Translations under genes and position numbers: made by a program
From: Escherichia coli O127:H6 str. E2348/69
Lineage (GTDB): Bacteria > Pseudomonadota > Gammaproteobacteria > Enterobacterales > Enterobacteriaceae
Assembly (NCBI RefSeq): GCF_000026545.1
Contig: NC_011601.1
DNA: 64,000 bases
Direction: 5' to 3' (one strand)
In this document: positions 2,302-64,000 of the stretch, piece by piece
How positions within the stretch are numbered: the first letter of the stretch is position 1
Layout: each line of letters opens with the position of its first letter
The notes under the pieces: generated by a model
The model's database searches: none
The model's input: only the letters and a program-made list of their open reading frames with translations
What the model was told of the DNA's origin: nothing

Positions 2302-2705
2302 ATAGCCGCCTTGTTGTAATGACAACATTTTGCGGCTATTCTTGAATTGTTCTGGTTCAAGATTAGCCCCCGTTCTGTTGTCAGGTTATACCTCTCAACG
2401 TGCGGGGGTTTTCTCTTTCCAGCAACCAATGCCACCAGGGATAAAGCCCCCGCAACATTGCGCCTCACCGGATAACGCCGGCTTGGTGTGGATACTACGT
2501 CGCAATTCATCTTCACTTCATCCCTGAAATGTTTGCAACAAAGGGTACATTCCGGCTTTTCAACAGCTGTTACAGTCGTTTCGTGCAGGTTGTGGTACAG
2601 GCTTGCAATTCTGATTAACAACCTGTCCAGCTAGTATGAAGAAATATAATAAGCAGGAATTTATATTATCTCCCCCGATTTCCGTCATCGGAGGAGATAT
2701 AACTG

Positions 2706-3806
2706 TCAGGCAAATATCGTCATCAAATAGGCGGCAAACAGTGCCAGATGCGCTGCGCCATTGAGCACGTTAGTTCGTCCGGTGGAGAAGGAGATATGGC
2801 ACAGTACTAAAGAGGCCACCATCACCACCATTTCTGGCGCACCAAGTGCAAACTGCAATTCGTTACCCGTCATAAAGGCAATTAGCGTGACGACAGGTAC
2901 GGTAAGCGAAATGGTTGCCAACACTGAACCAAAGAACAGATTCATCGCGCGCTGGACCTGGTTATTCAACACTGCTTTTAACGCACCTAAACCTTCCGGC
3001 GACAGAATCAACAGAGCCACCAGGAAGCCAGTAAAGGCGACAGGCGCATTCATGCTGTCGAGCAATGTCTCCAGCGGGCTGGCGTTCATTTTGGTGACTG
3101 CAATAACGGCAATCAGATGGACAATCAACCAGATGGCATGCCACAGGCTGCTATGGGCAGACGGTTTACCGTGGTGCGGGTCGTCATCATCACTGTCATC
3201 TTCGTGCTCGTAGACAAACAAACTTTGATGTGTTTTGGTCTGGATCAGCAAAAATACGCCATACATTGCCGCAGAAATTAATGCTACCAGTAACGCCTGA
3301 CCTGTTGAAAAATTCGCTGCAGGCAGAGCCATTGGAAATACCAGTACGATTATCGCCAGGGGGAACAGCGCAATTAAATACTGCTTGATACCAAACAGAT
3401 TCATATATTGGGTGGCAAACTTACGTCCGCCCAACAATAATGAAAAGCCAACCAGCCCACCTGTAACAATCATAATGATTGAATAGAGCGTATCACGCAT
3501 TAGCGTTGGCGCGGCGTCGCCGGTTGCCATTAAAGCTGAAATCAAACTGACTTCAAGAATAACCACTGAAAGGCTAAGAATAAGCGAACCGTAAGGTTCT
3601 CCCAGGCGATGGGCTAATACGTCCGCATGACGGACAACACTAAAGGCGCTACTTAAAATACCAATAAGCGCAAGAAGATTGATGGCAATGACCACTGGTA
3701 GTGTCTGGCTGCTTCCCCACAGGAACAGCACTACCAGCGCCAGAACCGGGAAAATAAGCGAAGTCTCCTTGTGGCGGGTTTTTACCGCCTCTTGAGCATT
3801 TGACAT
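2706..3806 (-). CDS. chaA: Ca2+/H+ (Na+/H+) antiporter
   Basis: 366 aa polytopic membrane protein with acidic loop, conserved context with chaBC. Confidence 0.95.
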   Translation of the reverse strand: MSNAQEAVKTRHKETSLIFPVLALVVLFLWGSSQTLPVVIAINLLALIGILSSAFSVVRHADVLAHRLGEPYGSLILSLSVVILEVSLISALMATGDAAPTLMRDTLYSIIMIVTGGLVGFSLLLGGRKFATQYMNLFGIKQYLIALFPLAIIVLVFPMALPAANFSTGQALLVALISAAMYGVFLLIQTKTHQSLFVYEHEDDSDDDDPHHGKPSAHSSLWHAIWLIVHLIAVIAVTKMNASPLETLLDSMNAPVAFTGFLVALLILSPEGLGALKAVLNNQVQRAMNLFFGSVLATISLTVPVVTLIAFMTGNELQFALGAPEMVVMVASLVLCHISFSTGRTNVLNGAAHLALFAAYLMTIFA

Positions 3807-25369: not shown

Positions 25370-25454
<85 letters not shown>

Positions 25455-51474: not shown

Positions 51475-52605
51475 TCAAATGACCAGTTTTTTCCATTCCT
51501 TACCGCGTGCGTCGTTGTAAATATCGGTCATTTTTTGATTCGAATGGCCTAGCAAAATTTTGGTATCAACCCCCTGCTCTCTGAACAATCGCTCTGATAA
51601 AGATCTCTGCTCATGGAAAGAGGGAGGGGTGCCATTAGCACGCCAGTTGTAATCCACAGAATCCCGGGCTTTTTTAAATGCAACGGTTAATGTTGCTGGC
51701 TTAACCATCCCGCCGCGCTTAGCTGTCCCTTTCGCGTGATGGTGGTGCAATAGCCACGGACTAAGAACGCAATCGCGGCAGGATGACACCACATCATCCA
51801 GGGTGAGATTTAATTTATCGCAACGCAGAGCCAGAGGGATGGCAATCCGGGTTCCTGTTTTTTGCTGTTCGACATGAAGATAACCATCCCGGATATCCGA
51901 AAATTGCATTTTGCAAATATCTGAAAGGCGCTGGCCTGTCATCAGTGCCAGCAGCATACCTCGCTGTAAAAAGTAACCATCCTTTTCCGCTGCGTTATAA
52001 ATCATCATCCACTCATCAAAAGTCAGTCGCTGTCTTGATATCCGCACCTGCGGTTTTTTTGCCGATTCTGCAGGGTTAAAGCCTGGCGGGACATCGCCCG
52101 TTTGCTGAGCTTCCCGGAAAACATCGATCAGTACTTTCCTGAAAATTTGTCCCATTCTGTTATGTCCTCTGGCCTTGTACTCTTCCAGTACTGATACCAC
52201 ATCTTTTACGGTTATGGCATCTAACGGTCTGGTGCCAAAACGTTCATCAAATACCCTGAGAGGGGCCGCTTTCTGTTTCAGCGTGTTGAGTTTGATCTCG
52301 CCGTTTTTATATCTTTCCTGTTGAATTTTTCTGTAATTATTCAGAAAAATGGTAACGGTTGATGAACCGCCGGTATCACTAATAATTTTCTCCTGCAGAC
52401 TGAGCATTTGTTCCATTTGCTGCCGGGCAAGACGGCTGTTCGCTTCTGCTGCAATAGTTTCTGCCAGTTTCTGGTCAATACTGCCGAGACCGTGATTTTT
52501 GCCTGTTATGGGATGCCTGTAACGCCAGTAAACTTTGTTATTTCTTTTGTCAAAATACGGAGATAATCCCGGAACATCGGTTTTATATTTTCGCGGGCGC
52601 GCCAT
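51475..52605 (-). CDS. int: Prophage tyrosine integrase
   Basis: 376 aa; HxxR (FHEQRSL) and catalytic Tyr (MTDIYND) near C-terminus; 3' end overlaps hairpin CTGGTCAT-caa-ATGACCAG. Confidence 0.9.
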   Translation of the reverse strand: MARPRKYKTDVPGLSPYFDKRNNKVYWRYRHPITGKNHGLGSIDQKLAETIAAEANSRLARQQMEQMLSLQEKIISDTGGSSTVTIFLNNYRKIQQERYKNGEIKLNTLKQKAAPLRVFDERFGTRPLDAITVKDVVSVLEEYKARGHNRMGQIFRKVLIDVFREAQQTGDVPPGFNPAESAKKPQVRISRQRLTFDEWMMIYNAAEKDGYFLQRGMLLALMTGQRLSDICKMQFSDIRDGYLHVEQQKTGTRIAIPLALRCDKLNLTLDDVVSSCRDCVLSPWLLHHHHAKGTAKRGGMVKPATLTVAFKKARDSVDYNWRANGTPPSFHEQRSLSERLFREQGVDTKILLGHSNQKMTDIYNDARGKEWKKLVI

Positions 52606-52831
52606 CTTCCAGTATCCTCTTCAAAGCAGGGTGATCTGTGGCGATCACCTCCGGCTTGTTTACCATTCCGACAAAGCGAGCTTGCGGATCCACTCGCCAG
52701 CGTCTTCCAACTTTTTTGGGGAGAGGAAATATCATTCCGGCTTTAGCGTATTTACTTAACGTACTCGGAGTTGGGACCGGTTCACTGAATTCCTCTTTTG
52801 CCCACTCAGTGAGCAGAATAAGTCTTGCCAT
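52583..52831 (-). CDS. xis: Excisionase/AlpA-like DNA-binding protein
   Basis: 82 aa, overlaps int start, GRRWRVDP motif. Confidence 0.7.
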   Translation of the reverse strand: MARLILLTEWAKEEFSEPVPTPSTLSKYAKAGMIFPLPKKVGRRWRVDPQARFVGMVNKPEVIATDHPALKRILEDGAPAKI

Positions 52832-52895
52832 GAGCGTCGTTCGCTAATCATGGTCGCCGCCACTATAGCTGGTGGGCAACGACCGGGGTTGAACA

Positions 52896-55367
52896 TTAAA
52901 AATCAGCCTGATTCGGGATCAGTTTTTGCCAGATAACTGAAACGTATTTTGCCTGGTAACGGGCGTCATCAAGTGCATTATGGCGCTCACCTTCGAATGG
53001 AATAGCCGTTCTGGCATCGAAGTCTATGGCTTTCCCCAGCTCAACGATTGTGCGTACATCGCGATCGTTGTAGTAACGCCACGGGCAGGGGATCCCCTGC
53101 CGTTCGTATGAACGGCGCAAAATCGTGTTGTCGAAGTTGGCTCCATTTCCCCAGACCTGAACAAAAAATTCACCGGAGTTTTCGTCGATAAATTCCCGCA
53201 ATTGTAACAGTGCATCATCTAACGGGATTTCATCGGTCATAATGGCAGATTGCGCTTCGCGTGATTGCTTAAGCCACCATTTAATGGTGTCCCGATCAAT
53301 GACCCCGCCAGCAGTTTCCAGATCGATAGTCTTACTAAATTCCGGTCCCATATCTCCGGTTTGCGGATCGAAAAATATTGCACCTATTGAGATGATCGGG
53401 GCATCAGGATTTTTTCCCATGGTTTCAAGGTCGATCATTAGATGGTCACACGTCCTGCTGGTGGATGTGATTTCTTGATGACCGTTCACCTTAATTGAGT
53501 GATCTGCCGTCTCGCCAGTTTCATTATCGCTATCGTGATGCTGATTGCCGTCAGTGTTCTCCTTGTGTGGATGTTCAGCGCCTTCCATTTCCTCCGGATC
53601 ATCTTCCTGAACTTCAACCTGATACTCTTCATCGAATGTTTCCTGGTATGTTGCGTCGCCCATCACCGCGCCACAATCAGGGCAGTTGCCGCCGCCGGTC
53701 TGACCGCAGGCGGTGCAGACTTTTTCCACTTCCTGTTGCGCCACTGGTTCAGGCTGTTTCGTTTCTGGCTCGTTTTGTAACGCATTTGGGCTGTTTTGTT
53801 CCGCTTTCTGGCCGTTCTGTTCCGTTTCTTGCTGGTTCTGATTCACTGAATCGCGGGTTTCAATCCCCTTCACCCATTTCGGATCATTCTGGTCGCTAAT
53901 CCCTGCAACAAATTCTCCGCGAGAGGCAGCAAGCAACTTATCGGCGTCAGGCTGGCTGATATTGGCTGCCTGCATAATTTTGTTTACTTCGTCAGCGGTA
54001 ACTTTTACCGGCTCTGGTTGTGCGGTCGTGTCAGATGCACCAGTATTTTGTTGTGAACCTGAGTATGTACTGTTTTTGCGGGCGAAATATTCTTCTTTCG
54101 TGATTTCAGTAGCCCCGGCAGCCAGCGCCTTATCCAGACCAGAAAGTTTGTTTGCGCGACCGTATTTTTCGCCATCCTTGTCGGTGAAGAGGAAGTAGAA
54201 CGGCCCTTCACGCTCTACAGATGGTTCGACTTCCACTTTGCATTCGGTTTTTTCGTTGTCCGGAATTGCCGTTTCCACTGCATCAGTTTCTGGTACTGGC
54301 GACGAGAGAGTATCAGTTGCGCTCTGATTTCTTCCTTCATCTTCAAACACGCCCTTTGTAGTCAGGTATTCAGTAATGTATTTGTTCAGTGCCACAGGGT
54401 CTTTGTGAATGTCGATCGGACGTTCACGGACAAGGCCAAAAATAGTCTGGCGGTCGTAGCGAAGGGCATCAGGCTGTTTGCGCATTGATGCCGAGATACG
54501 CTTCCAGTCTTCGCGGTCGTTGTCGATAACTTCATTTTTTGCCCAGCGATGGATGCTGCCGTCAATGTTTCCGGCATCCACATCACCAGGCCAGAGAGCG
54601 TAGGCCAGTTCGTCATCCAGTGTTTTCCATGTCTGCTTGTATTCGCGATGAATGGCAGCAATGACCGGGCTGATTTTTCCTGTTGAATTTTCAGTGTTCT
54701 GTTGATTGGTTCTGGCGCGGGCGAGATCAACAACAGACGTGTATTTTCCGGTTTCCTTGCGTTCACCTTCGCGACGTTTTTTCCAGATGCGCATCTCTGC
54801 CTGAATTTCGGGCCATTTGGCACCAGGCTTACATTTATGCTTAACCCACCCGATGGCATGCAGCTTAAGCTCCGGATACATGGCGTTAACTTCTGGCATT
54901 TTCATCAACGCTTCAACGATATGTCCGTCGAATGTTGCCATGTCTTCCTGCAACAATTCCTGTGCGCTAATAACCATATCAACGGTGATGTTTTCACATG
55001 TGTCGAACTTAACCATGACAGCGTTCGGTACTTCAGGGGCCAGCTTGTCAAAAGTGACGTTCATCGGATCTGATTCAGTCTCAACCGGGACAAAGGAAGC
55101 AGACTCCTCATCCCAGCGGTTTTCCTGCATATATTCAGCATCCCAGGAATCGAGGGCAGGGCGGGGTATGCCGGGTTTATCCTCACAGACAATAAATTTA
55201 TAAGCGCAGTCCTGAGCTGCAGGGAATTGCTCCAGAAATTGCCAATGAAATTTTGCGCGTGCGCGACGCTCATCACCAGCTTCAATGGCAGTGGCCACCG
55301 CAACAGCGCTATCTTCTTTTATGGCCTGTTCATCAGGAATAGCAGCGCAAATAAAGACTTTACTCAT
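52896..55367 (-). CDS. Prophage exonuclease with C-terminal DnaQ-like DEDDh 3'-5' exonuclease domain
   Basis: 823 aa; C-terminal motifs MIDLETMG (Exo I), NGANFDNTIL (Exo II), HNALDDARYQA (Exo III); CTACGQTGGGNCPDCG zinc-ribbon-like; acidic low-complexity linker. Confidence 0.8.
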   Translation of the reverse strand: MSKVFICAAIPDEQAIKEDSAVAVATAIEAGDERRARAKFHWQFLEQFPAAQDCAYKFIVCEDKPGIPRPALDSWDAEYMQENRWDEESASFVPVETESDPMNVTFDKLAPEVPNAVMVKFDTCENITVDMVISAQELLQEDMATFDGHIVEALMKMPEVNAMYPELKLHAIGWVKHKCKPGAKWPEIQAEMRIWKKRREGERKETGKYTSVVDLARARTNQQNTENSTGKISPVIAAIHREYKQTWKTLDDELAYALWPGDVDAGNIDGSIHRWAKNEVIDNDREDWKRISASMRKQPDALRYDRQTIFGLVRERPIDIHKDPVALNKYITEYLTTKGVFEDEGRNQSATDTLSSPVPETDAVETAIPDNEKTECKVEVEPSVEREGPFYFLFTDKDGEKYGRANKLSGLDKALAAGATEITKEEYFARKNSTYSGSQQNTGASDTTAQPEPVKVTADEVNKIMQAANISQPDADKLLAASRGEFVAGISDQNDPKWVKGIETRDSVNQNQQETEQNGQKAEQNSPNALQNEPETKQPEPVAQQEVEKVCTACGQTGGGNCPDCGAVMGDATYQETFDEEYQVEVQEDDPEEMEGAEHPHKENTDGNQHHDSDNETGETADHSIKVNGHQEITSTSRTCDHLMIDLETMGKNPDAPIISIGAIFFDPQTGDMGPEFSKTIDLETAGGVIDRDTIKWWLKQSREAQSAIMTDEIPLDDALLQLREFIDENSGEFFVQVWGNGANFDNTILRRSYERQGIPCPWRYYNDRDVRTIVELGKAIDFDARTAIPFEGERHNALDDARYQAKYVSVIWQKLIPNQADF

Positions 55368-55459
55368 TTTGTTTTACCTCATTACAGATTTAAGGGTGAA
55401 CAAATCCCTGCCATTGCTGGCATATAAGAATGAAACCGGATGTTTATTACGGAACTGTT

Positions 55460-55651
55460 TTAAAGACCTGCCGGGATTTCGTTATTATCCTGGTGAATAA
55501 CTTTATCGACCGGGTAACAGTTACCGGGAATTTTCTGTTCGGTTGCTGCAGTCACACACTCCTGCATTGTCCTGTGAACACTGACTGCAATATCAACTGG
55601 CTCTCCGGAAACAAGAAAAACTGTCAGAACAAGTGCAAATGCTGTATTCAT
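55460..55651 (-). CDS. ydfD: YdfD-like small membrane (lysis) protein
   Basis: 63 aa from MNTAFALVLTVFLVSGEPVDIAVSVHRTMQEC; recalled as Qin-prophage ydfD; alternative start 55660. Confidence 0.6.
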   Translation of the reverse strand: MNTAFALVLTVFLVSGEPVDIAVSVHRTMQECVTAATEQKIPGNCYPVDKVIHQDNNEIPAGL

Positions 55652-55836
55652 TGCCAGCATCCTTTTTGTATCGGACGTAAACGGGCCAGCATTGAAAGAA
55701 TGCATATTTTATTTAATAGCTCCCGTTCGTGTTTTCTCTTGTTAATGGCATCTTCAGTAAATACAGGGTTACTGATAGTGACACCAATTTCAAAACAACC
55801 TTCAGACGTATTAACGTTTGGTAATAACGTTTCCAT
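55648..55836 (-). CDS. dicB: Cell division inhibitor DicB (MinC activator)
   Basis: 62 aa METLLPNVNTSEGCFEIGVTISNPVFTEDAINKRKHERELLNKICILSMLARL, near-identical to DicB as recalled. Confidence 0.9.
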   Translation of the reverse strand: METLLPNVNTSEGCFEIGVTISNPVFTEDAINKRKHERELLNKICILSMLARLRPIQKGCWQ

Positions 55837-56010
55837 TATCGCGTCCTCAACAATGAATTTTGTGATGTGGTGCCTGGTGCCTCCAGGTGACGTTAACCAG
55901 TTAACAATTAACGCCGGATACAGAGAATCCACCCATAACACTGTTTTTGGTTTTAACTGTTCCGCGTGCGCTCAGCCGCATTCACCGCATCACAAAATTC
56001 ACTTTAAAAA

Positions 56011-56063
56011 CGGCGGCAGAGCAGTCACGGAGTAAAACTGATACCGCCAAACGTCACCAGAAA
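56011..56063 (-). ncRNA. dicF: DicF small RNA (ftsZ translation inhibitor)
   Basis: Minus strand reads TTTCTGGTGACGTTTGGCGGTATCAGTTTTACTCCGTGACTGCTCTGCCGCCG then a T-run, matching recalled DicF. Confidence 0.85.
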
Positions 56064-56394
56064 ATTGATAACAGAGGGCGTTGCAGCGGGGTTGTCGCTT
56101 AAGCGTATGGTCAACCTGACAACCCGGTGTCCTCAACGGGGAAGGAATAACCCCGCCATACTTACCGCCGCGCCATTTCGCGGAGTGCCACAACCGGAAG
56201 CGCACGGTCGAACTAAATTTAACGACACCGTACAGAGAGACCAATTTTGCCGTGCGCTTTCGCGTTATGCCCTGACTTTTCAGGGACATATCCTTTCAGT
56301 AAACTGTCAGTGCCGGATGTTCACCCGTGTCCGGCGCACGCACTCCACCTGACCCGTGGAGAACTCCTTAATTACCAACCCTCAGGAGGGTGAA

Positions 56395-56673
56395 ATGGAT
56401 AAAAAGCAAATTGAGGCCCTGCAATCTATTATTGAAAAACAAGATGAAGCTATCAGGATTCTTTCATATCGCACTGATATGATACTAAATATGCTTTCTG
56501 CATTAACGGCTGCGCTTGGTGGTACAAAAACAAACGTATACCGCGAAGTTGTTATTCAACAGATAGATAAATTTGAAAAAACCATACCAGGTATTAATGC
56601 TCATCTTGCAGAACAAGAGAAAGACCATGCTCTTATGGCAATTTCTTCAGTAGCTCTCCCGAAAGTTGAGTAG
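56395..56673 (+). CDS. Hypothetical coiled-coil-like protein, opposite strand within leftward early region
   Basis: ATG 56395 preceded by AGGAGG; 92 aa; 3' end overlaps convergent gene 56633-57046 by about 41 nt. Confidence 0.5.
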   Translation: MDKKQIEALQSIIEKQDEAIRILSYRTDMILNMLSALTAALGGTKTNVYREVVIQQIDKFEKTIPGINAHLAEQEKDHALMAISSVALPKVE

Positions 56674-57046
56674 TTTTAATTGTTGTTTTGAAATAATCAC
56701 TGCTTTCACATTTGAGTGATTTCATGGCAATCCAAATGCGGGCCTCTGTGCCTGCATTTGGTTCCAGTTGCTGTAGACGTTTTGCGTCTTCCAAAAGTAA
56801 GGCGATAATGTGTTTCAGCTTCTCATCATTTGCTTGATTCTTGTTTTCAGGCGAATTCTGTCCGCCGAATAGGCGCTTCTCTTCATACAGACCTATAAAG
56901 GCACGACGCACGTTACCGGATATAGTATCGATGGTTTCTTTTTCTACGGTACTCAGGTCAAGAGTCGCCAGTTGAGAGCGAACCACATTCGATGCCATTT
57001 CCTGGAATGGTACTGGTAAATCTTTAAATTCCATCGTCAACCTCAT
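56633..57046 (-). CDS. Hypothetical prophage early-left protein (137 aa)
   Basis: ATG overlaps stop of upstream gene (TGATG); no motif recognised. Confidence 0.55.
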   Translation of the reverse strand: MRLTMEFKDLPVPFQEMASNVVRSQLATLDLSTVEKETIDTISGNVRRAFIGLYEEKRLFGGQNSPENKNQANDEKLKHIIALLLEDAKRLQQLEPNAGTEARIWIAMKSLKCESSDYFKTTIKTTQLSGELLKKLP

Positions 57047-57279
57047 CAGTCAGTGTTTCTGGTTAACCAGCGACGCGCGCCAGCTTCAGTTTTAAACGTT
57101 TTGCTTCTGGTATACGTCATCGCGGTAAACGTGCCGTCCTGGTTGGGGAACACGCCACATACCAGAGATTCGTTGTTGCCAAGATTGAGCATATCCATGT
57201 TGACCTCATTTCCCCTTAACGCCGGGGTAGCGGAACAAAAACCTGCTGCATAGTTATTAAAGTTGAACCCTGCCGTCAT
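57046..57279 (-). CDS. Hypothetical prophage protein, first gene of leftward early transcript (77 aa)
   Basis: Position equals N/first pL gene; C-terminal basic patch RSKTFKTEAGARRWLTRN. Confidence 0.5.
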   Translation of the reverse strand: MTAGFNFNNYAAGFCSATPALRGNEVNMDMLNLGNNESLVCGVFPNQDGTFTAMTYTRSKTFKTEAGARRWLTRNTD

Positions 57280-57381
57280 GTTCTTACGCCTCGGGCTGGC
57301 TACTTAACCCCTGACCACTGCCTGGTAACTCGAAGTATTGCCCTGCATTCTGTGGGGCGGGGTGGGTTGGTATGAAAAGAA

Positions 57382-57424
57382 GGATACCCATAGGTATTTA
57401 AAAAGTAAATACCTATGGGTAAAT
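57382..57424. promoter_or_regulatory. Pair of TACC-N4-GGTA dyads (candidate OL-type operator and/or repressor-gene terminator)
   Basis: TACCCATAGGTA (57385-96) and its reverse complement TACCTATGGGTA (57410-21), separated by AAAAAGT. Confidence 0.5.
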
Positions 57425-57463
57425 TTTTGCGGTGTCTTAACTGGTGACTAGTTGTTTGGTGAG

Positions 57464-57883
57464 CTATGATGCGTTTTGTGCTTTCTTTTTACGGATTTCT
57501 TCGTAGATCATATTGTAATACTGTTTTTTCTCTTCAAGAGTTTTTAATAATTTATCCGCTTCACTTTCTGGCAGTTCGTCTAAGAGATCTAAAAAAATAC
57601 GTTGTCGTGGCGTTAGAACCCTTGTTTCATAACTGGAGGCTGTGTTCGTTGATGATGAAACGATACCATCCATCCATCCCCGGGGTAACCCAAAGGACTC
57701 TTCGATAATCTCCACCATATCATCAGCGATCCGTTTTTTTCCCTTTTTCCCCTCTGGGTACAACATTCTTGATACATAAGAAGGCTCGCGCCCGATCTTT
57801 CTGGCCACGTTAACCGCTTTACCATCGCATTTCTCATCACGAATTTTGATGAGTTGCTGTCGTCTAAATTCATATTTGTCCAT
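57464..57883 (-). CDS. Putative prophage repressor (short HTH protein in cI position)
   Basis: 139 aa, HTH-like segment AVNVARKIGREPSYVSRM, divergent from Cro-like gene. Confidence 0.55.
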   Translation of the reverse strand: MDKYEFRRQQLIKIRDEKCDGKAVNVARKIGREPSYVSRMLYPEGKKGKKRIADDMVEIIEESFGLPRGWMDGIVSSSTNTASSYETRVLTPRQRIFLDLLDELPESEADKLLKTLEEKKQYYNMIYEEIRKKKAQNAS

Positions 57884-57902
57884 AGGTAAATAATAGATGC
57901 GA

Positions 57903-57955
57903 TTACCGCAAGGTAAACAACCTGTGGGTATTGGTTTTTGTTTACCTGCGGGTAT
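57903..57955. promoter_or_regulatory. Divergent promoter/operator region with two TACC-N4-GGTA dyads
   Basis: TTACCGCAAGGTAA (57903-16) and TTACCTGCGGGTAT (57942-55) between repressor and Cro-like gene. Confidence 0.55.
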
Positions 57956-57983
57956 TCTTTGCTGTGTTTACTAAGGAGTAGCT

Positions 57984-58265
57984 ATGGAAGAATTAAGAAT
58001 ATTTCTCAATTCTCTTTCGTCAGATGAACAGCGTATGTTTGCATGCGAGTGTGGTACCAGCATCGGTTATCTAAGAAAGGCATTGAGTAAAGGTCAAGTG
58101 TTAGGGGCATCGTTATGTGTCCTTATTGAGCGAGCCAGTAATGGTGAAGTTACACGTCAGCAACTAAGGCCTTTTGATTGGATGAATATTTGGCCCGAGC
58201 TGGAAGATACCAAAACGTTAACACAACCACTTTCTAGGAGCTTGATTCATGAAAATCAAGCATGA
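57984..58265 (+). CDS. Cro/YdaS-like HTH regulator
   Basis: 93 aa; motif ...GEVTRQQLRPFDW resembles YdaS-family Cro-like proteins. Confidence 0.6.
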   Translation: MEELRIFLNSLSSDEQRMFACECGTSIGYLRKALSKGQVLGASLCVLIERASNGEVTRQQLRPFDWMNIWPELEDTKTLTQPLSRSLIHENQA

Positions 58266-58674
58266 ACACATCCGCATGGCGATGAATGTCTGGGCGCATC
58301 CGGACGGCGAAAAAGTGCCGGCTGCGAAAATTACCAAAGCGTATTTCGAGCTGGGAATGACGTTCCCGGAACTGTATGACGACAGCCATCCGGAAGCCCT
58401 GGCCCGTAATACCCAGAAAATTTTCCGTTGGCTGGATAAAGACACCCCTGATGCTGTTGAAAAAATGCAGGCTCTGTTACCGGCGATCGAAAAGGCGATG
58501 CCGCCTTTGCTGGTGGCCCGTATGCGCAGCCACAGTTCTGAATATTACCGTGAGATCGTCGAACGGAGGGATCGGCTGGTGAAGGATGTCGATGATTTTG
58601 TTGCGTCAGCGGTTGTTTTGTATGACCAGATGAATCGCGGCGGCCCGGCAGGGAATGCTGTGGTGATGCACTAA
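58249..58674 (+). CDS. YdaT-like (CII-position) prophage regulator
   Basis: 141 aa beginning MKIKHEHI as in YdaT family; overlaps Cro-like gene 3' end. Confidence 0.6.
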   Translation: MKIKHEHIRMAMNVWAHPDGEKVPAAKITKAYFELGMTFPELYDDSHPEALARNTQKIFRWLDKDTPDAVEKMQALLPAIEKAMPPLLVARMRSHSSEYYREIVERRDRLVKDVDDFVASAVVLYDQMNRGGPAGNAVVMH

Positions 58675-58681
58675 AAGCACG

Positions 58682-59659
58682 GTGTTCGGGGGTTTTATGA
58701 GCAGCAAGCTTCATGGTCTTGTCTGGGAAGGGTGCGCCTTCACCGGCATGATCTTATCCAGGGGGGCGGTTATGGCCCGTCTTGCAGACTACAGCAATGA
58801 CGAGGGCGTGTCATGGCCTGCCATTGAAACTATCCGGCGTCAGATCGGTGCAAGAAGTGAATCCACAGTGAAATCGGCTATTGCAGAACTGGCGAAAGAG
58901 GGCTGGCTGACGAAGGAAGAGCGTAAGGTCGGTGGGCGTAATGTAAGCAATATCTATCGGCTTAATGTGGAAAAACTCGAAGCAGCTGCGGCGGCGGCGC
59001 GTGAGTCATATAAACCGAAAAGAAAAATTAGCCCGGCAAAAAATGACCCGTTAACAGTTGACCCGTCAAATATTGACCCCTCAACGGTTGACCCGTCAAA
59101 TTTTGATGGATCAACTGTTGATAAAAAACTGCCGATTAGGGGGGCGATGATTGACCCCGATCCGTCAGTATTAAAACCTGATCCGTCAGATAAAAGATCT
59201 TCTTGTCCGGACGCTTCGCAACCGGACCCGCAGACGGCTGAACAGGATTTTTTAACCCGACACCCTGACGCGGTTGTGTTCAGTGCGAAAAAACGCCAGT
59301 GGGGAAGTCAGGAAGATTTGGTGTGCGCACAGTGGATCTGGGGACGAATCGTGAGTCTTTACGAGCAGGCGGCCAGCTATGATGGCGAGATCACTAGACC
59401 GAAAGAACCCAACTGGACAGCATGGGCCAATGACGTTCGCACAATGCGGATGCTGGATGGCAGAACTCACAGACAAATTTGTGAAATGTTTGGGCGTCTC
59501 CAGCGGGATTCGTTCTGGGTAAAAAACATCATGAGTCCGGCAAAACTCCGGGAAAAATGGGATGAACTGGTTATCCGCCTGGGGCGTTCGCCTGCGCAGC
59601 GTTGCGTGAATCACATTTCTGAACCGGACACTGAAATTCCGCCGGGCTTCAGGGGGTAA
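58682..59659 (+). CDS. Phage replication initiation protein (O-like, N-terminal HTH)
   Basis: Position after cro/cII; N-terminal winged-helix-like region; Pro/Asp-rich repeats VDPSNIDPSTVDPSNFD; start 58682 (GTG) or 58697 (ATG). Confidence 0.6.
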   Translation: MFGGFMSSKLHGLVWEGCAFTGMILSRGAVMARLADYSNDEGVSWPAIETIRRQIGARSESTVKSAIAELAKEGWLTKEERKVGGRNVSNIYRLNVEKLEAAAAAARESYKPKRKISPAKNDPLTVDPSNIDPSTVDPSNFDGSTVDKKLPIRGAMIDPDPSVLKPDPSDKRSSCPDASQPDPQTAEQDFLTRHPDAVVFSAKKRQWGSQEDLVCAQWIWGRIVSLYEQAASYDGEITRPKEPNWTAWANDVRTMRMLDGRTHRQICEMFGRLQRDSFWVKNIMSPAKLREKWDELVIRLGRSPAQRCVNHISEPDTEIPPGFRG

Positions 59660-59699
59660 GTGTTAATTTCTGGTCATGAGGTAATTTTCAGGAGGGCTT

Positions 59700-60122
59700 G
59701 TGGCAAAAGTTTTTACACAAGAAGAGCGGGAAAAAATTAAAGGGCAGGTTGTTGAACTCGTACGCCAGAGTGGGCGCGAGACGTTACGACAACTGGAAAC
59801 TAAAACTGGGGCAACAAGATATCTGATGAGCGTTCTGGCCAGAGAGCTGGTTGCCAGTGGCGATGTATACAACTCTGGTTACGGGTTATTCCCGTCTGAA
59901 CAGGCGCGTAAGGACTGGCAAAATGCCCGTAAAAAGCTCTCAAGGGCAAAGCTGAAGAAACCATCTGCGGTTGATCCGGACCTTATCTGGTCATTACCTG
60001 ACGGAGAAATACGTCGCTACGACAGGCGTCAGAACATAATCTGTCGCGAGTGCCGGAAGAGCGAAGCTATGCAGCGCGTACTGGCGTTTTATCAGGGGAA
60101 TTTTGAGGAGGTGGTGCGGTGA
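59700..60122 (+). CDS. Hypothetical protein in the P/helicase-loader position
   Basis: 140 aa, GTG start, basic, CRECRK motif; no ATPase motif seen. Confidence 0.45.
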   Translation: MAKVFTQEEREKIKGQVVELVRQSGRETLRQLETKTGATRYLMSVLARELVASGDVYNSGYGLFPSEQARKDWQNARKKLSRAKLKKPSAVDPDLIWSLPDGEIRRYDRRQNIICRECRKSEAMQRVLAFYQGNFEEVVR

Positions 60123-60365
60123 GTGAATCAAAATGCCAGGTTAATGGCAACAAGATAGAACCATGTGCAGCACTGGCAAAGTCCCTTGAGCGTGATGCTG
60201 AATACACGATGCGAAAAGGTCTGCTGATATACAAAATCTGAAATGAGAGTTTAACTCGCGGTCCTGATTTTGTGATGTTGCGTTCCGGTGAATTTTCTAA
60301 ATTACCAGTTCGGGTTTCATTTTGTCCGTTCTGTGGTGAAAGTCTGAAAACGTGGGAGAACAGAA

Positions 60366-60677
60366 ATGAATGAAATTAAAGAAATACCAGTAGTACGTGA
60401 TGAATATGGCTGCTGGACGCATCCTGAATATGAAAAATTCTGTGACGGTCGGGAATATATTTCAACGGAAGAGTTTAACGCCTGGATGGAGGAAAATAAT
60501 CTTCAATACGTCCTCTGCTTCAGAGATGAAGGATGTGCTGACCTTGATGCGTGTGATGCTGATATTTCTGCATGGGAACCGGAACGACCAGAGGGCAATG
60601 GATGGTTTATTGGTTCAATACATGACACCGAAGATGGCCCGGTTTGTGTATGGCTGAGAAATAAGGTCGAAGCATAA
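60366..60677 (+). CDS. Hypothetical acidic Cys-containing prophage protein (nin-region type)
   Basis: 103 aa, strong ORF with good start context. Confidence 0.5.
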   Translation: MNEIKEIPVVRDEYGCWTHPEYEKFCDGREYISTEEFNAWMEENNLQYVLCFRDEGCADLDACDADISAWEPERPEGNGWFIGSIHDTEDGPVCVWLRNKVEA

Positions 60678-60809
60678 AGGCTATAAACCGACTAACAACT
60701 AAATACTGAAGATTTAAATCAGAAACGATTTTTATTAAATCCTTAACCGGAGGGATTCCTGCACCCTCAAATCATCAGGAGGCCGCCCGAAAGGGCGGTG
60801 GAGATAATA

Positions 60810-61331
60810 ATGGGAATAACTAAAGAACGATTGTTGGAAATAGCAAACCTTAGTGATTGGGCATTAAGTGATGAGAGAATTGTTTCTCCTCATGCTTATG
60901 AGTCAGTTACAAGTATAGAAATAACAACAATGGCTAGAATGCTGCTTGGTTATTTCAAAATAGAAAATAAAAAACAGATGGATAGTAATGTTGATATATG
61001 TGAGATTTTAGACGATTGGGGGGCTTGGGTTGTGGCTGGTAATAGTTCTATTGATTGGCAGGAAATAGCTGATAAATATAAAAATGTTGTTCCTCATGGT
61101 AAAAAATCACGTCGTCAGTGCAGCAATGATGAAGGGCGAATTATTGACATTAGTATCCTTAGGTTAGAAAGATATAAGCAACAAGAATATGAGTTAATTG
61201 TTGCTCATTTCGTGATTGGTTTATCTCTTCGTGCTATTGCAAAGCAACAAGGATGTTCAGATGGAACAATTCGTAAAAGATTGCAAAAAGCCTTAGGTTT
61301 TTTGACTGGATATATAGCAATTACCAGTTAA
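60810..61331 (+). CDS. Q: Late-gene antitermination protein Q (933W/H-19B-type Q family)
   Basis: Matches recalled 933W-type Q: WGAW, SRRQCSNDEG, and C-terminal HTH GLSLRAIAKQQGCSDGTIRKRLQKALGFL. Confidence 0.75.
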   Translation: MGITKERLLEIANLSDWALSDERIVSPHAYESVTSIEITTMARMLLGYFKIENKKQMDSNVDICEILDDWGAWVVAGNSSIDWQEIADKYKNVVPHGKKSRRQCSNDEGRIIDISILRLERYKQQEYELIVAHFVIGLSLRAIAKQQGCSDGTIRKRLQKALGFLTGYIAITS

Positions 61332-61969
61332 GAGTCAGCGGTTTTTTTACCAGTGTAATGGTATAAGGATACTCCCATGTGTCTTACATGATATGGAAGC
61401 GCTGTTGCTGGATGCTTTGTGATACTCTTAAAGCGGAGGGGAGAGCCTTCCGCTTCAATTTCTGCGTCCGAAACGGTCGTAGAGAAAAATTCTTTCCATT
61501 CATTGAATTTTACTGCTGATTTGTCAGACTTTATATAAATTAGAATTCCTCCATGATCGTCACGTGACGTACCCGTGCCGTAACGTTCGGTTAGCTGAAT
61601 CCAGCCATTATGAATAGATTTGGGGCCTCTCCATAATTTTGCTTCACCGATCCATTCGAATTTTCCGAATTGATGTTTAACTAATAAATCAACGTGACCG
61701 CCATGTTGAGTATCATGTTCAACATCATAAAACCTACCTTTCAGGAAATTTTTGATCGACGCTGTTAGCTCGTCCTCTCCCCACTTAGCATCTTGATAGA
61801 AGTGTTTGTCATTTTCTAAATTCTGAATAGCGTCGTCTAAATCTTCATAGAGTTGCTTTACAAAAATATTTTTGTCTGCAGCTAATTTTCTTTGAACCAT
61901 TCCCCTAAATTCAGGATCCATTCTAATTAATGATTGAAGGTCTGCAGTACAGATGTTTACATCACTCAT
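61328..61969 (-). CDS. Cassette gene C: predicted PD-(D/E)xK-like nuclease (213 aa)
   Basis: ATG 61969 overlaps stop of gene B; motif GEDE...HVDLLV...EWIGEAK (E, D, ExK spacing typical of restriction-endonuclease fold); AT-rich. Confidence 0.6.
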   Translation of the reverse strand: MSDVNICTADLQSLIRMDPEFRGMVQRKLAADKNIFVKQLYEDLDDAIQNLENDKHFYQDAKWGEDELTASIKNFLKGRFYDVEHDTQHGGHVDLLVKHQFGKFEWIGEAKLWRGPKSIHNGWIQLTERYGTGTSRDDHGGILIYIKSDKSAVKFNEWKEFFSTTVSDAEIEAEGSPLRFKSITKHPATALPYHVRHMGVSLYHYTGKKTADS

Positions 61970-62390
61970 GCAGACTCTCCAAAAGACTCGAAGGAGTAAA
62001 GTATGGATAAAGATACTGGCTAAAATTATCAACCAATTCGCCAGTTTCTGGATGGTAAAAACTTCCTGTGTCTAAAGCATAGGAAATAAGATCATCTTCA
62101 ACTGGTATTGGTTCTTCCGTTAAATTATCAATGTATTGAAAATGCATATCCAATAGATGTGCTTTATAGCTAGATAAATAATCAGTTGCTTTTATTAGCA
62201 GGATATAGCCATCTTTCGTATCAGTTAGATAGGTTAAACCATTGATAAGGGTTTTGTATGTAAAGTGATTGATATTTTTAGCATCTTTACTAACCAGAAA
62301 AAGAAAAAGATCACGACACACACTGCGAACAGGATCATTAAAATCCTGCTCTATTTGCGTGATAATGTCGTGATATATACTCTTTTTCAT
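61962..62390 (-). CDS. Cassette gene B: hypothetical protein (142 aa)
   Basis: ATG overlaps stop of gene A (ATGA); no recognised motif; AT-rich. Confidence 0.6.
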   Translation of the reverse strand: MKKSIYHDIITQIEQDFNDPVRSVCRDLFLFLVSKDAKNINHFTYKTLINGLTYLTDTKDGYILLIKATDYLSSYKAHLLDMHFQYIDNLTEEPIPVEDDLISYALDTGSFYHPETGELVDNFSQYLYPYFTPSSLLESLHE

Positions 62391-63478
62391 TTATGGCCTG
62401 ATGATCTCGCTCTTCTTTTCTCTTCACAGGACTTAACAGAATCCAATATTTTTTCAACAATAAATATAATCGAATCAATGTTGTTACAGTTCTTCGCAAT
62501 TGCTTCATGCAACCTAATTCTAGGATTATCAAGCATTGTCCTTTTTCCTGGTAATATTAACTCTACTGATAAAATATGTGAAGAACTTTGTGGTAAATCC
62601 CAAATTTTTCCCAACTTAAACTTTGTCAATATTGGGCTTGCGGACTCTCCACTATGATGGTAAACATCTTGACGCAAACACTTTTGACTTGGTTTGAGTT
62701 TTAAAGAACTTGTATTGCCATCTGAGGTGATAAAAGATACATGAGAAATTCTGCCATCTACTTTTTCGTAAAGATCTTGTATTGAACCAAATAATTCAAG
62801 AGGATTGTTTAAAATAACGCCAGCTTCTTTTTTTATAAATTTAGCCACAAGGTATTGTTGAGGCTGTGATTCACTTCTTGGAAGGATAGATAAATCAATC
62901 GTAAGAATTAATATTTTTTCTGCAGGCATTAGCATGATGGTATTAAAGCATTGCGTGACTTGGCGTGTTTTGCATTTTATTTCTCCACCATTAGCACGTA
63001 ATTCCATACCCGCATCGCTAAGATGTGTTGGGTCAAGCTCTATCACTTCAGTGTAATACGCTTTGGATAAAAAAACAGCAGTGTCAATTTGTTTATCACG
63101 AATGATATCTTGACGTAGTTCAGCAAAATGCAGCTCAGTATCAGCAACTAACAGCTCCTCTCTGGATAAAGGAATTGGGTATTTTTCTGAGAAGGGGCTA
63201 TTGTCCTTTTTCTGATTTGTGAAAATTGTTTGTAATTTTGCTACGTCTTCATCGGTGATTCTATAAATAGAAAGTAATCGATTCCCGCTAAAAATTAAAC
63301 CTTTCCAGAAATCGTCGATTCTGTCTTTTAGGTCGGGATTATGCTGAACTACACTATTTACACGTTCAATAAAAAGGGGTAATCCTTGGGCCGTTACACC
63401 CAGTGATGAACCAAGAAGCTTACGGGTGTTGCGCCAGCCAAAGCGTGAATTGATGTTTTTTACTGTTTGCTCAAGCAT
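62387..63478 (-). CDS. Cassette gene A: hypothetical protein (363 aa)
   Basis: ATG 63478 preceded by AAGGAAG; no Walker A or other motif recognised; AT-rich. Confidence 0.6.
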   Translation of the reverse strand: MLEQTVKNINSRFGWRNTRKLLGSSLGVTAQGLPLFIERVNSVVQHNPDLKDRIDDFWKGLIFSGNRLLSIYRITDEDVAKLQTIFTNQKKDNSPFSEKYPIPLSREELLVADTELHFAELRQDIIRDKQIDTAVFLSKAYYTEVIELDPTHLSDAGMELRANGGEIKCKTRQVTQCFNTIMLMPAEKILILTIDLSILPRSESQPQQYLVAKFIKKEAGVILNNPLELFGSIQDLYEKVDGRISHVSFITSDGNTSSLKLKPSQKCLRQDVYHHSGESASPILTKFKLGKIWDLPQSSSHILSVELILPGKRTMLDNPRIRLHEAIAKNCNNIDSIIFIVEKILDSVKSCEEKRRARSSGHK

Positions 63479-63824
63479 TAACACTTCCTTAATTTTCCCT
63501 TAACAATTTAGGGTGCTAAACTTTTTTGCGCAGTTTACATAAAAAAATAGTGCGTACGCAAAAACTATCTAACATGATGAGCTTTAACCGGGAAATTTGT
63601 ATATGTTGTGAGCATAAAGTTGGCTGAGAAATCTAAAACGGGTAGAATGACTGCGGGTGCTTGAGGCTATCTGTCTCAGGCATGAACACCAAAAGGCAGA
63701 TAGAGAAAAGCCCCAGTTAACATTACGCGTCCGGCAAGACGCTTAACATTAATCTGAGGCCATATCTATGCTCTACACACGTAGGTTAGCCTCTTACGTG
63801 CCGAAAGGCAAGGAGAAGCAGGCT

Positions 63825-63980
63825 ATGAAGCAGCAAAAGGCGATGTTAATCGCCCTGATCGTCATCTGTTTAACCGTCATAATGACGGCACTGGTAACGA
63901 GGAAAGACCTCTGCGAGGTACGAATCCGAACCGGCCAGACGGAGGTCGCTGTCTTCACAGCTTACGAACCTGAGGAGTAA
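63825..63980 (+). CDS. hokD: Hok/Gef-family type I toxin (HokD/RelF-like)
   Basis: 51 aa MKQQKAMLIALIVICLTVIMTALVTRKDLCEVRIRTGQTEVAVFTAYEPEE; in-frame upstream extension from 63768 (mok-like). Confidence 0.9.
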   Translation: MKQQKAMLIALIVICLTVIMTALVTRKDLCEVRIRTGQTEVAVFTAYEPEE

Positions 63981-64000
63981 GAGACCAGGCGGGGGAGAAT

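Follow-up and report, generated by a model that had tools for sequence, protein, structure and literature searches.

The dicF-dicB-ydfD block and its products

At 55460-56063 on the minus strand of the window (the whole 64,000-nucleotide stretch of E. coli E2348/69 DNA analysed here) the small RNA gene dicF and the protein-coding genes dicB and ydfD form a block within the early-left (PL-type) operon of PP6, a lambdoid prophage of this EPEC strain. The original prediction had placed an intact module between these limits, and all three elements were found there on the same strand, with boundaries exact to the base: the ydfD stop codon ends at 55460, and 56063 is the 5' end of dicF as defined in K-12. 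Alignment with the K-12 Qin prophage, which had been proposed as a check, gave 96.5% DNA identity over 55460-56063 with no gaps, far beyond chance.

The dicF gene (53 nt, 56011-56063, minus strand; Rfam RF00039) includes the stem-loop of its intrinsic terminator (56048-56012). It matches the full RF00039 model (positions 1-52 of 52) at 56062-56011 with 72.5 bits against a gathering score of 48 (E-value of 4.8e-14 over the 64-kb window), and its ends (56063 and 56011) were set with the K-12 annotation as ruler. The stem-loop is followed by the terminator U-run, UUUUU at 56010-56006 (minus strand; GCCGCCG-TTTTT-AAAG), with a folding energy of -16.6 kcal/mol, bearing out the expectation of a DicF RNA that precedes dicB on the same strand and ends in a T-run terminator. 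Relative to K-12 dicF, 52 of the 53 nucleotides are identical, the sole change being a C to G replacement of the last base before the U-run. Nucleotides 1-52, with the 5' region as well as the loop that is complementary to the ftsZ ribosome-binding site, equal those of K-12 DicF, whose target pairing was validated by compensatory mutations (PMC5069750). The duplex predicted by RNAduplex between DicF and the ftsZ leader is the same for the window as for K-12; it is over-extended, so that the core pairing at the ribosome-binding site is its sole meaningful part. Of 5424 matching E. coli records, 5388 have an ftsZ leader with an identity of at least 99%. The RefSeq record of E2348/69 carries the canonical sequence at NZ_CP059840.2 2730655-2730707 (equal to window 56063-56011) without a dicF annotation, and dicF is likewise left unannotated in the other PGAP-annotated genomes examined. 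Among the papers searched, none dealt with DicF in EPEC.

The division inhibitor gene dicB (55648-55836, minus strand; Pfam PF05358; RefSeq WP_000449192.1, annotated dicB) starts 174 nt after dicF. It is not truncated: the 62-residue product matches positions 1-62 of 62 of PF05358 with 127.4 bits against a gathering score of 27 (E-value of 1.7e-37). The length of 62 residues had been correctly anticipated, but the protein is close rather than near-identical to K-12 DicB (55 of 62 residues, 89%). The seven differences include K2E, Q36H and V47L; one is at K2 and four lie within the last 8 residues, a segment that can be deleted with retention of toxicity (PMC4967827). The N-terminus reads METLLPNV, with no residue deleted and L5 retained. 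An intact N-terminus including L5 is essential for DicB, and K2 tolerates A, G and R (PMC4967827); judged by position, K2E would fall at a substitution-tolerant site, though the tolerance was shown for A, G and R rather than E. The same DicB accession is also present in an O157:H7 strain.

The third element, ydfD (DUF1482, 63 aa; 55460-55651, minus strand), has a full-length match to Pfam PF07358 (88 bits against a gathering score of 25) and shares 59 of 63 residues (94%) with K-12 YdfD, as expected of a YdfD-like peptide following dicB. The reading frame opens with an ATG that shares a 4-nt overlap (ATGA) with the dicB stop codon. Both dicB and the DUF1482 gene are annotated by RefSeq in E2348/69. 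Three further open reading frames overlap the block, one of 201 aa on the plus strand and two of 96 and 97 aa on the minus strand, and were rejected as coding: the ATG of the 96-aa frame reads ATT in K-12, and the 97-aa frame is a mere upstream GTG extension of dicB past the 62-aa Pfam model.

Processing signals and the dicF-dicB spacer

Upstream of dicF a conserved structured leader (56064-56385, minus strand) contains an RNase III hairpin, the putative 5' end of the DicF precursor (~56200) and an AU-rich RNase E region just 5' of dicF. It is 90.4% identical to K-12, and the homology begins abruptly at ~56385, identity being 34% upstream of that position. In K-12, DicF is cut from a polycistronic transcript, with RNase III responsible for the 5' terminus of a 190-nt species and RNase E for that of the 53-nt form (PMC10448788), while the 3' end comes from the terminator or, for a 72-nt form, from RNase III (PMC5069750). 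The equivalent of the 190-nt precursor, from the RNase III end to the terminator (56200-56011), is identical to K-12 at 186 of 190 nucleotides, and the sequence surrounding the RNase E-generated 5' end is identical. The RNase III hairpin (~56269-56189, 18 pairs) keeps its stem, with the predicted end of the 190-nt species within the 3' arm, and its apical loop is the only patch that varies strongly between K-12 and the window. Disruption of the dicF processing sites, named beforehand as an argument against an intact module, is therefore not found; on sequence, the processing signals are kept in the window copy, since the precursor matches K-12 at 186 of its 190 positions.

The leader fold is also conserved among 11 aligned loci, as gauged with a structure derived from the window sequence and with the small sample that 11 loci represent. 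Within this alignment the RNase III hairpin reaches 99.5% pairing and has 5 pairs in which both sides have changed; in the whole leader model 93% of cells are standard pairs. Twelve leader pairs are changed on both sides, compared with 2.3 in shuffles and 2-4 in slid controls.

Between dicF and dicB lies a 174-nt spacer, the dicB leader (55837-56010, minus strand), which is predicted to fold into a long-range helix enclosing three hairpins. In the predicted fold the helix is ~27 bp long and pairs 56010-55983 with 55872-55844, the 5' arm consisting of the DicF terminator U-run and the bases that follow it, while the 3' arm holds the dicB Shine-Dalgarno sequence GAGGA. The minimum free energy is -66.9 kcal/mol (z = -5.19), and none of 200 shuffles folds as well. 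The spacer is identical to K-12 at 171 of 174 nucleotides and nearly invariant among the 11 loci; the window helix contains a C.A mismatch absent from the other 10. The same spacer lies in front of kilR in Rac-SA53 and of kil in phage Evi, and the element maps to 2496-2685 in related locus L004 and to 2889-3074 in related locus L005. According to the model, the dicB ribosome-binding site would be buried by this very stable and conserved fold. The long helix is a probable RNase III site, because the reported 3' end of the 72-nt DicF falls inside it. A consensus scan of the minus strand found no second promoter between dicF and dicB, and experiments in K-12 likewise found none there (PMC10448788).

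The spacer additionally gives sub-threshold matches to the Rfam family STnc100, with 35.3 bits in the window (gathering score 47) and 33-44 bits in all 10 loci tested (the window and nine related ones). STnc100 belongs with PasD to a family of RNAs from prophage intergenic regions, and a connection between STnc100 and the PasD sRNAs of E2348/69 has been drawn in a 2026 preprint. We considered whether the spacer is itself a PasD sRNA of this strain and rejected the idea, as PasD maps beside Q and an esterase gene in late regions. The identity is further ruled out by scores of 33-44 bits, below the gathering score of 47, and by the position of true STnc100 downstream of stxB, the bona fide copy of phage 933W sitting between stxB2 and an esterase gene. 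A broader combination of these observations, in which the spacer would be an autonomous structured RNA module, distantly related to STnc100/PasD, that gates inhibitor translation by way of RNase III, is a speculative model that we consider rather unlikely. Were it correct, translation of dicB, kil or kilR would depend on RNase III cutting the read-through transcripts, and the excised core of the spacer might persist as an Hfq-binding RNA.

The early-left operon of PP6 and its relatives

The prophage takes up 51475 to 64000 of the window, ~12.6 kb at the left end of an element of ~53 kb, which in the full record reaches an ompW fragment. It was identified as PP6 because it carries nleA, nleH and nleF (PMC5685641). 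The annotation of the full record lists terminase, portal, capsid, tail and lysis genes, and nleA, nleH2 and nleF are carried; int, xis and the head, tail and lysis genes are given there as intact, mostly outside the window. The element also has ISEc13 beside the Q/late region, an internal stop in one early gene, and decayed fragments at its far end. The description of the prophage as complete-looking is broadly upheld by the genes of the full record, on evidence that lies mostly outside the window and is no proof of inducibility.

Transcription of the operon would begin at a putative PL-type promoter around 57400 (57381-57423, minus strand; -35 TTTACT at 57408-57403, -10 TATCCT at 57386-57381) with two operators over it, TACCCATAGGTA and TACCTATGGGTA, which overlap it at 57385-57396 and 57410-57421. 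We infer this promoter rather than assign it outright, since its hexamers match at 8 of 12 positions and were not picked out in the consensus scan; its position corresponds to K-12 dicBp and to PL of phage Tritos. The operator motif TACC-N4-GGTA occurs four times in the 64-kb window against 0.39 expected, and all four copies are within the immunity region, two between the repressor and Cro genes (57904-57954) and two at 57385-57421 downstream of the repressor gene. The palindrome at 57385-57421 was called a plain terminator by the scan, a call that was set aside: since the motif is confined to the immunity region, the palindrome was re-read as a pair of operators over the promoter. A perfect palindrome of 16 bp with a T-run to either side, it could serve both as operator pair and as bidirectional terminator, including for the repressor transcript. 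The repressor gene (57464-57883, minus strand, the same as the operon) encodes a 139-aa analogue of CI/DicA (phrog_5736, transcriptional regulator, E-value of 6.4e-70), whose C-terminal domain resembles those of Tritos CI and DicA while the N-terminal domain differs. The immunity region further holds a YdaS-like Cro and YdaT.

The first gene of the operon is ydfA-like (57046-57198, minus strand; DUF1391, 50 aa; RefSeq; phrog_751, E-value of 1.6e-34), with a ribosome-binding region that matches that of K-12 ydfA. In the place of ydfB/ydfC it is followed by a 133-aa gene (56633-57034, minus strand; phrog_1363, E-value of 9.5e-45) with no Pfam match. A 92-aa gene on the opposite strand (56395-56673, plus strand; phrog_18692, E-value of 5.9e-63; annotated hypothetical), for which no promoter was found, lies inside the operon and abuts the leader without belonging to the module, and operon transcription must read through it. 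The spot looks like a variable cargo slot, because related loci carry different opposite-strand genes there (of 77 or 145 aa). Beyond ydfD the operon continues into an 823-aa 3'-5' exonuclease gene, the full-length counterpart of ydfE (52896-55367, minus strand; RefSeq; Pfam Rv2179c-like domain, E-value of 2.2e-67), followed downstream by xis (52583-52831, minus strand; RefSeq) and int (51475-52605, minus strand; RefSeq), after which comes chromosomal ompW.

In the early-right region a Phage_antitermQ-family gene (60798-61331, plus strand) was observed, a second Q lying beside the late genes outside the window. Between this gene and hok/sok three consecutive open reading frames (363, 142 and 197 aa; 61328-63478, minus strand) face against the early-right genes; Pfam gave no match for them and PADLOC none that was significant, and they may be prophage cargo. 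PADLOC likewise returned nothing significant for defence systems among the neighbouring uncharacterised genes. Other RNA genes detected in the window are sok of the prophage hokD/sok locus (63655-63830, plus strand; Rfam), a chromosomal rdlD-type antitoxin RNA (2349-2414, plus strand; Rfam) and a tRNA-Tyr gene (25370-25454, minus strand) on which Rfam and ARAGORN agree.

The closest known system is the dicBF operon of K-12 Qin (ydfABC-dicF-dicB-ydfDE, under DicA/DicC), with which the window shares the order leader, dicF, terminator, spacer, dicB, ydfD and exonuclease gene as well as the RNase III, RNase E and terminator signals. The two differ in their control and upstream regions. The window has the 139-aa repressor, the TACC-N4-GGTA operators, the YdaS-like Cro and YdaT where Qin has DicA/DicC, and ydfB and ydfC are absent from it, the 133-aa gene and the opposite-strand 92-aa gene occupying their place. 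K-12 ydfE is a pseudogene cut by IS2, whereas the counterpart in the window is full-length and is accompanied by intact xis and int; Qin is a defective, cryptic prophage, whereas PP6 retains structural genes. The prophage in the window is not Qin: judged by gene content, it has neither DicA/DicC control nor the full ydfA, ydfB and ydfC set upstream. This comparison also bears on the argument, made in the original prediction, that a complete-looking prophage suggests a functional module rather than a remnant. The module is indeed intact and not a remnant, but completeness of the prophage is no ground for function, since the K-12 module resides in the defective prophage Qin and is nonetheless active when derepressed (PMC10448788, PMC5069750).

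Escherichia phage Tritos has CI, ydfABC-like genes, dicF, dicB, ydfD, exonuclease, xis and int in the same order and is 95.5% identical to the window over a 1-kb query, differing in the DNA-binding domain of its repressor, in its operators and in the retention of ydfB- and ydfC-like genes. With an O157:H7 locus the window shares a gene of similar size in the same arrangement (135 aa in O157:H7), a small opposite-strand gene, the leader and then dicB, the DUF1482 gene and the exonuclease gene, including an identical DicB accession; the sRNA of the O157:H7 copy examined is a variant whose 3' half has changed (43.5 bits), whereas the window has the canonical K-12-type DicF. In Rac-type phages kilR, and in phage Evi kil, occupy the same operon position with the same ~160-nt structured spacer upstream, and neither Kil nor KilR has homology to DicB.

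The sRNA slot itself, the equivalent of 56011-56063, is polymorphic (L004, L007, L008, L010 and L011) between conserved leader and spacer flanks. Three related loci have an unrelated hairpin RNA in the slot with no DicF match in Rfam, and two fall below the Rfam DicF threshold: the O157:H7 copy, which retains the 5' part of DicF, and Rac-SA53, which has a DicF-like hairpin scoring 41.1 bits. A canonical DicF is therefore not a given at this site, yet it is present in the window. In strain 98222 an antirepressor-type cassette, comprising isrK RNA, a C4 antisense RNA and a Rha-family gene, is inserted between dicF and dicB (L009 1725-2579 and 1776-1964).

Of 5426 complete E. coli genomes, 4737 match a 1-kb query covering the block, at a median of 2 places per genome (maximum 10; two places in the E2348/69 record), as do 59 phage records, including Tritos with a complete block. 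O157:H7 EHEC prophages hold up to four dicF copies, and the biology of DicF in EHEC has been reviewed (PMC7873438); earlier publications describe multiple copies in EHEC as well as broad retention across E. coli (PMC5069750, PMC7873438). Given this published record and the commonness of the block in genomes and phages, the dicF-dicB-ydfD block is already known and ordinary in E. coli. The result is mostly of annotation value, and the sequence holds nothing unexpected.

Proposed function and alternative readings

Taken together, the sequence comparisons make it very probable that the window carries a genuine, intact dicF-dicB-ydfD block with K-12-type dicBF parts and mechanism in the PP6 early-left operon. 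Its activity in E2348/69 would follow by analogy with experiments in K-12 (mechanism: PMC10448788, PMC5069750, PMC8835842). In the lysogen the 139-aa repressor, bound to the TACC-N4-GGTA operators at the ~57400 promoter, would keep the operon off. Upon derepression, leftward transcription would cross the ydfA-like gene, the 133-aa gene and the structured leader, whose conserved hairpin would be cut by RNase III to yield the ~190-nt precursor, and RNase E would then generate the 5' end at 56063. The 3' end of DicF would come from the terminator or, for the 72-nt form, from an RNase III cut in the long spacer helix. Together with Hfq, DicF would pair with the ftsZ ribosome-binding site and lower FtsZ synthesis.

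One point against the scheme is that the DicF terminator separates dicB and ydfD from the promoter, so that both proteins rely on read-through, which has been seen past this terminator in K-12 (PMC10448788). From the read-through transcript DicB would be made, recruiting MinC to the division ring and blocking phages that enter through ManYZ. The same transcript would give YdfD, which would inhibit IspG and lyse dividing cells unless division is blocked, so that DicB would prevent the lysis; IspG binding and division-dependent lysis by YdfD come from experiments in K-12 (PMC8835842). The net outcome would be filamentation on prophage induction or on stochastic derepression.

A division-independent role is the alternative that survives best. 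The block may be active but retained for exclusion of ManYZ-dependent phages by DicB and for retuning of host mRNAs by DicF (xylR, pykA and manX, with pchA in EHEC), rather than for division arrest. The K-12 and EHEC literature favours such a role (PMC10448788, PMC5069750, PMC7873438), and so does the frequency of the block (4737 of 5426 complete genomes, often at more than one place), which hints at an advantage for the host. These activities are, however, compatible with division inhibition and not exclusive of it, and the same spacer in front of the unrelated kil and kilR points to division control as the conserved theme. We regard this role as a possibility of some substance, if clearly the less probable account of why the block is kept.

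Several features count against the division-inhibition mechanism set out above: the opposite-strand gene between the promoter and dicF could hinder read-through, the match of the promoter hexamers is weak, the C.A mismatch in the spacer helix is unique to the window, and DicB carries K2E, Q36H and V47L among its seven differences from K-12. The same features favour a block that is intact in sequence but silent or inactive in E2348/69 and passively carried, owing to permanent repression, to interference from the convergent 92-aa gene or to a weaker DicB variant. Set against such silence, every open reading frame and RNA signal is intact, and the block shares 96.5% identity with the K-12 copy, which is active. 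Other E. coli, O157:H7 among them, commonly have an opposite-strand gene upstream of the leader; the exact DicB protein also recurs in O157:H7, and the DicB substitutions are mostly at positions shown to be tolerant; a silent block is accordingly improbable. That the DicF match is a chance hit or a decayed look-alike, a thought suggested by the polymorphic slot with its three DicF-less loci and two sub-threshold ones (43.5 and 41.1 bits), can be dismissed as next to impossible, being already refuted by a score of 72.5 bits and identity at 52 of 53 nucleotides to the experimentally defined K-12 RNA.

With the division-inhibition reading preferred, the block amounts to a cassette for division arrest and phage exclusion that would stand under PP6 control, alongside the effector genes nleA, nleH2 and nleF, so that filamentation could result when PP6 is derepressed. 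In EHEC, DicF is one of the inputs to LEE virulence control.
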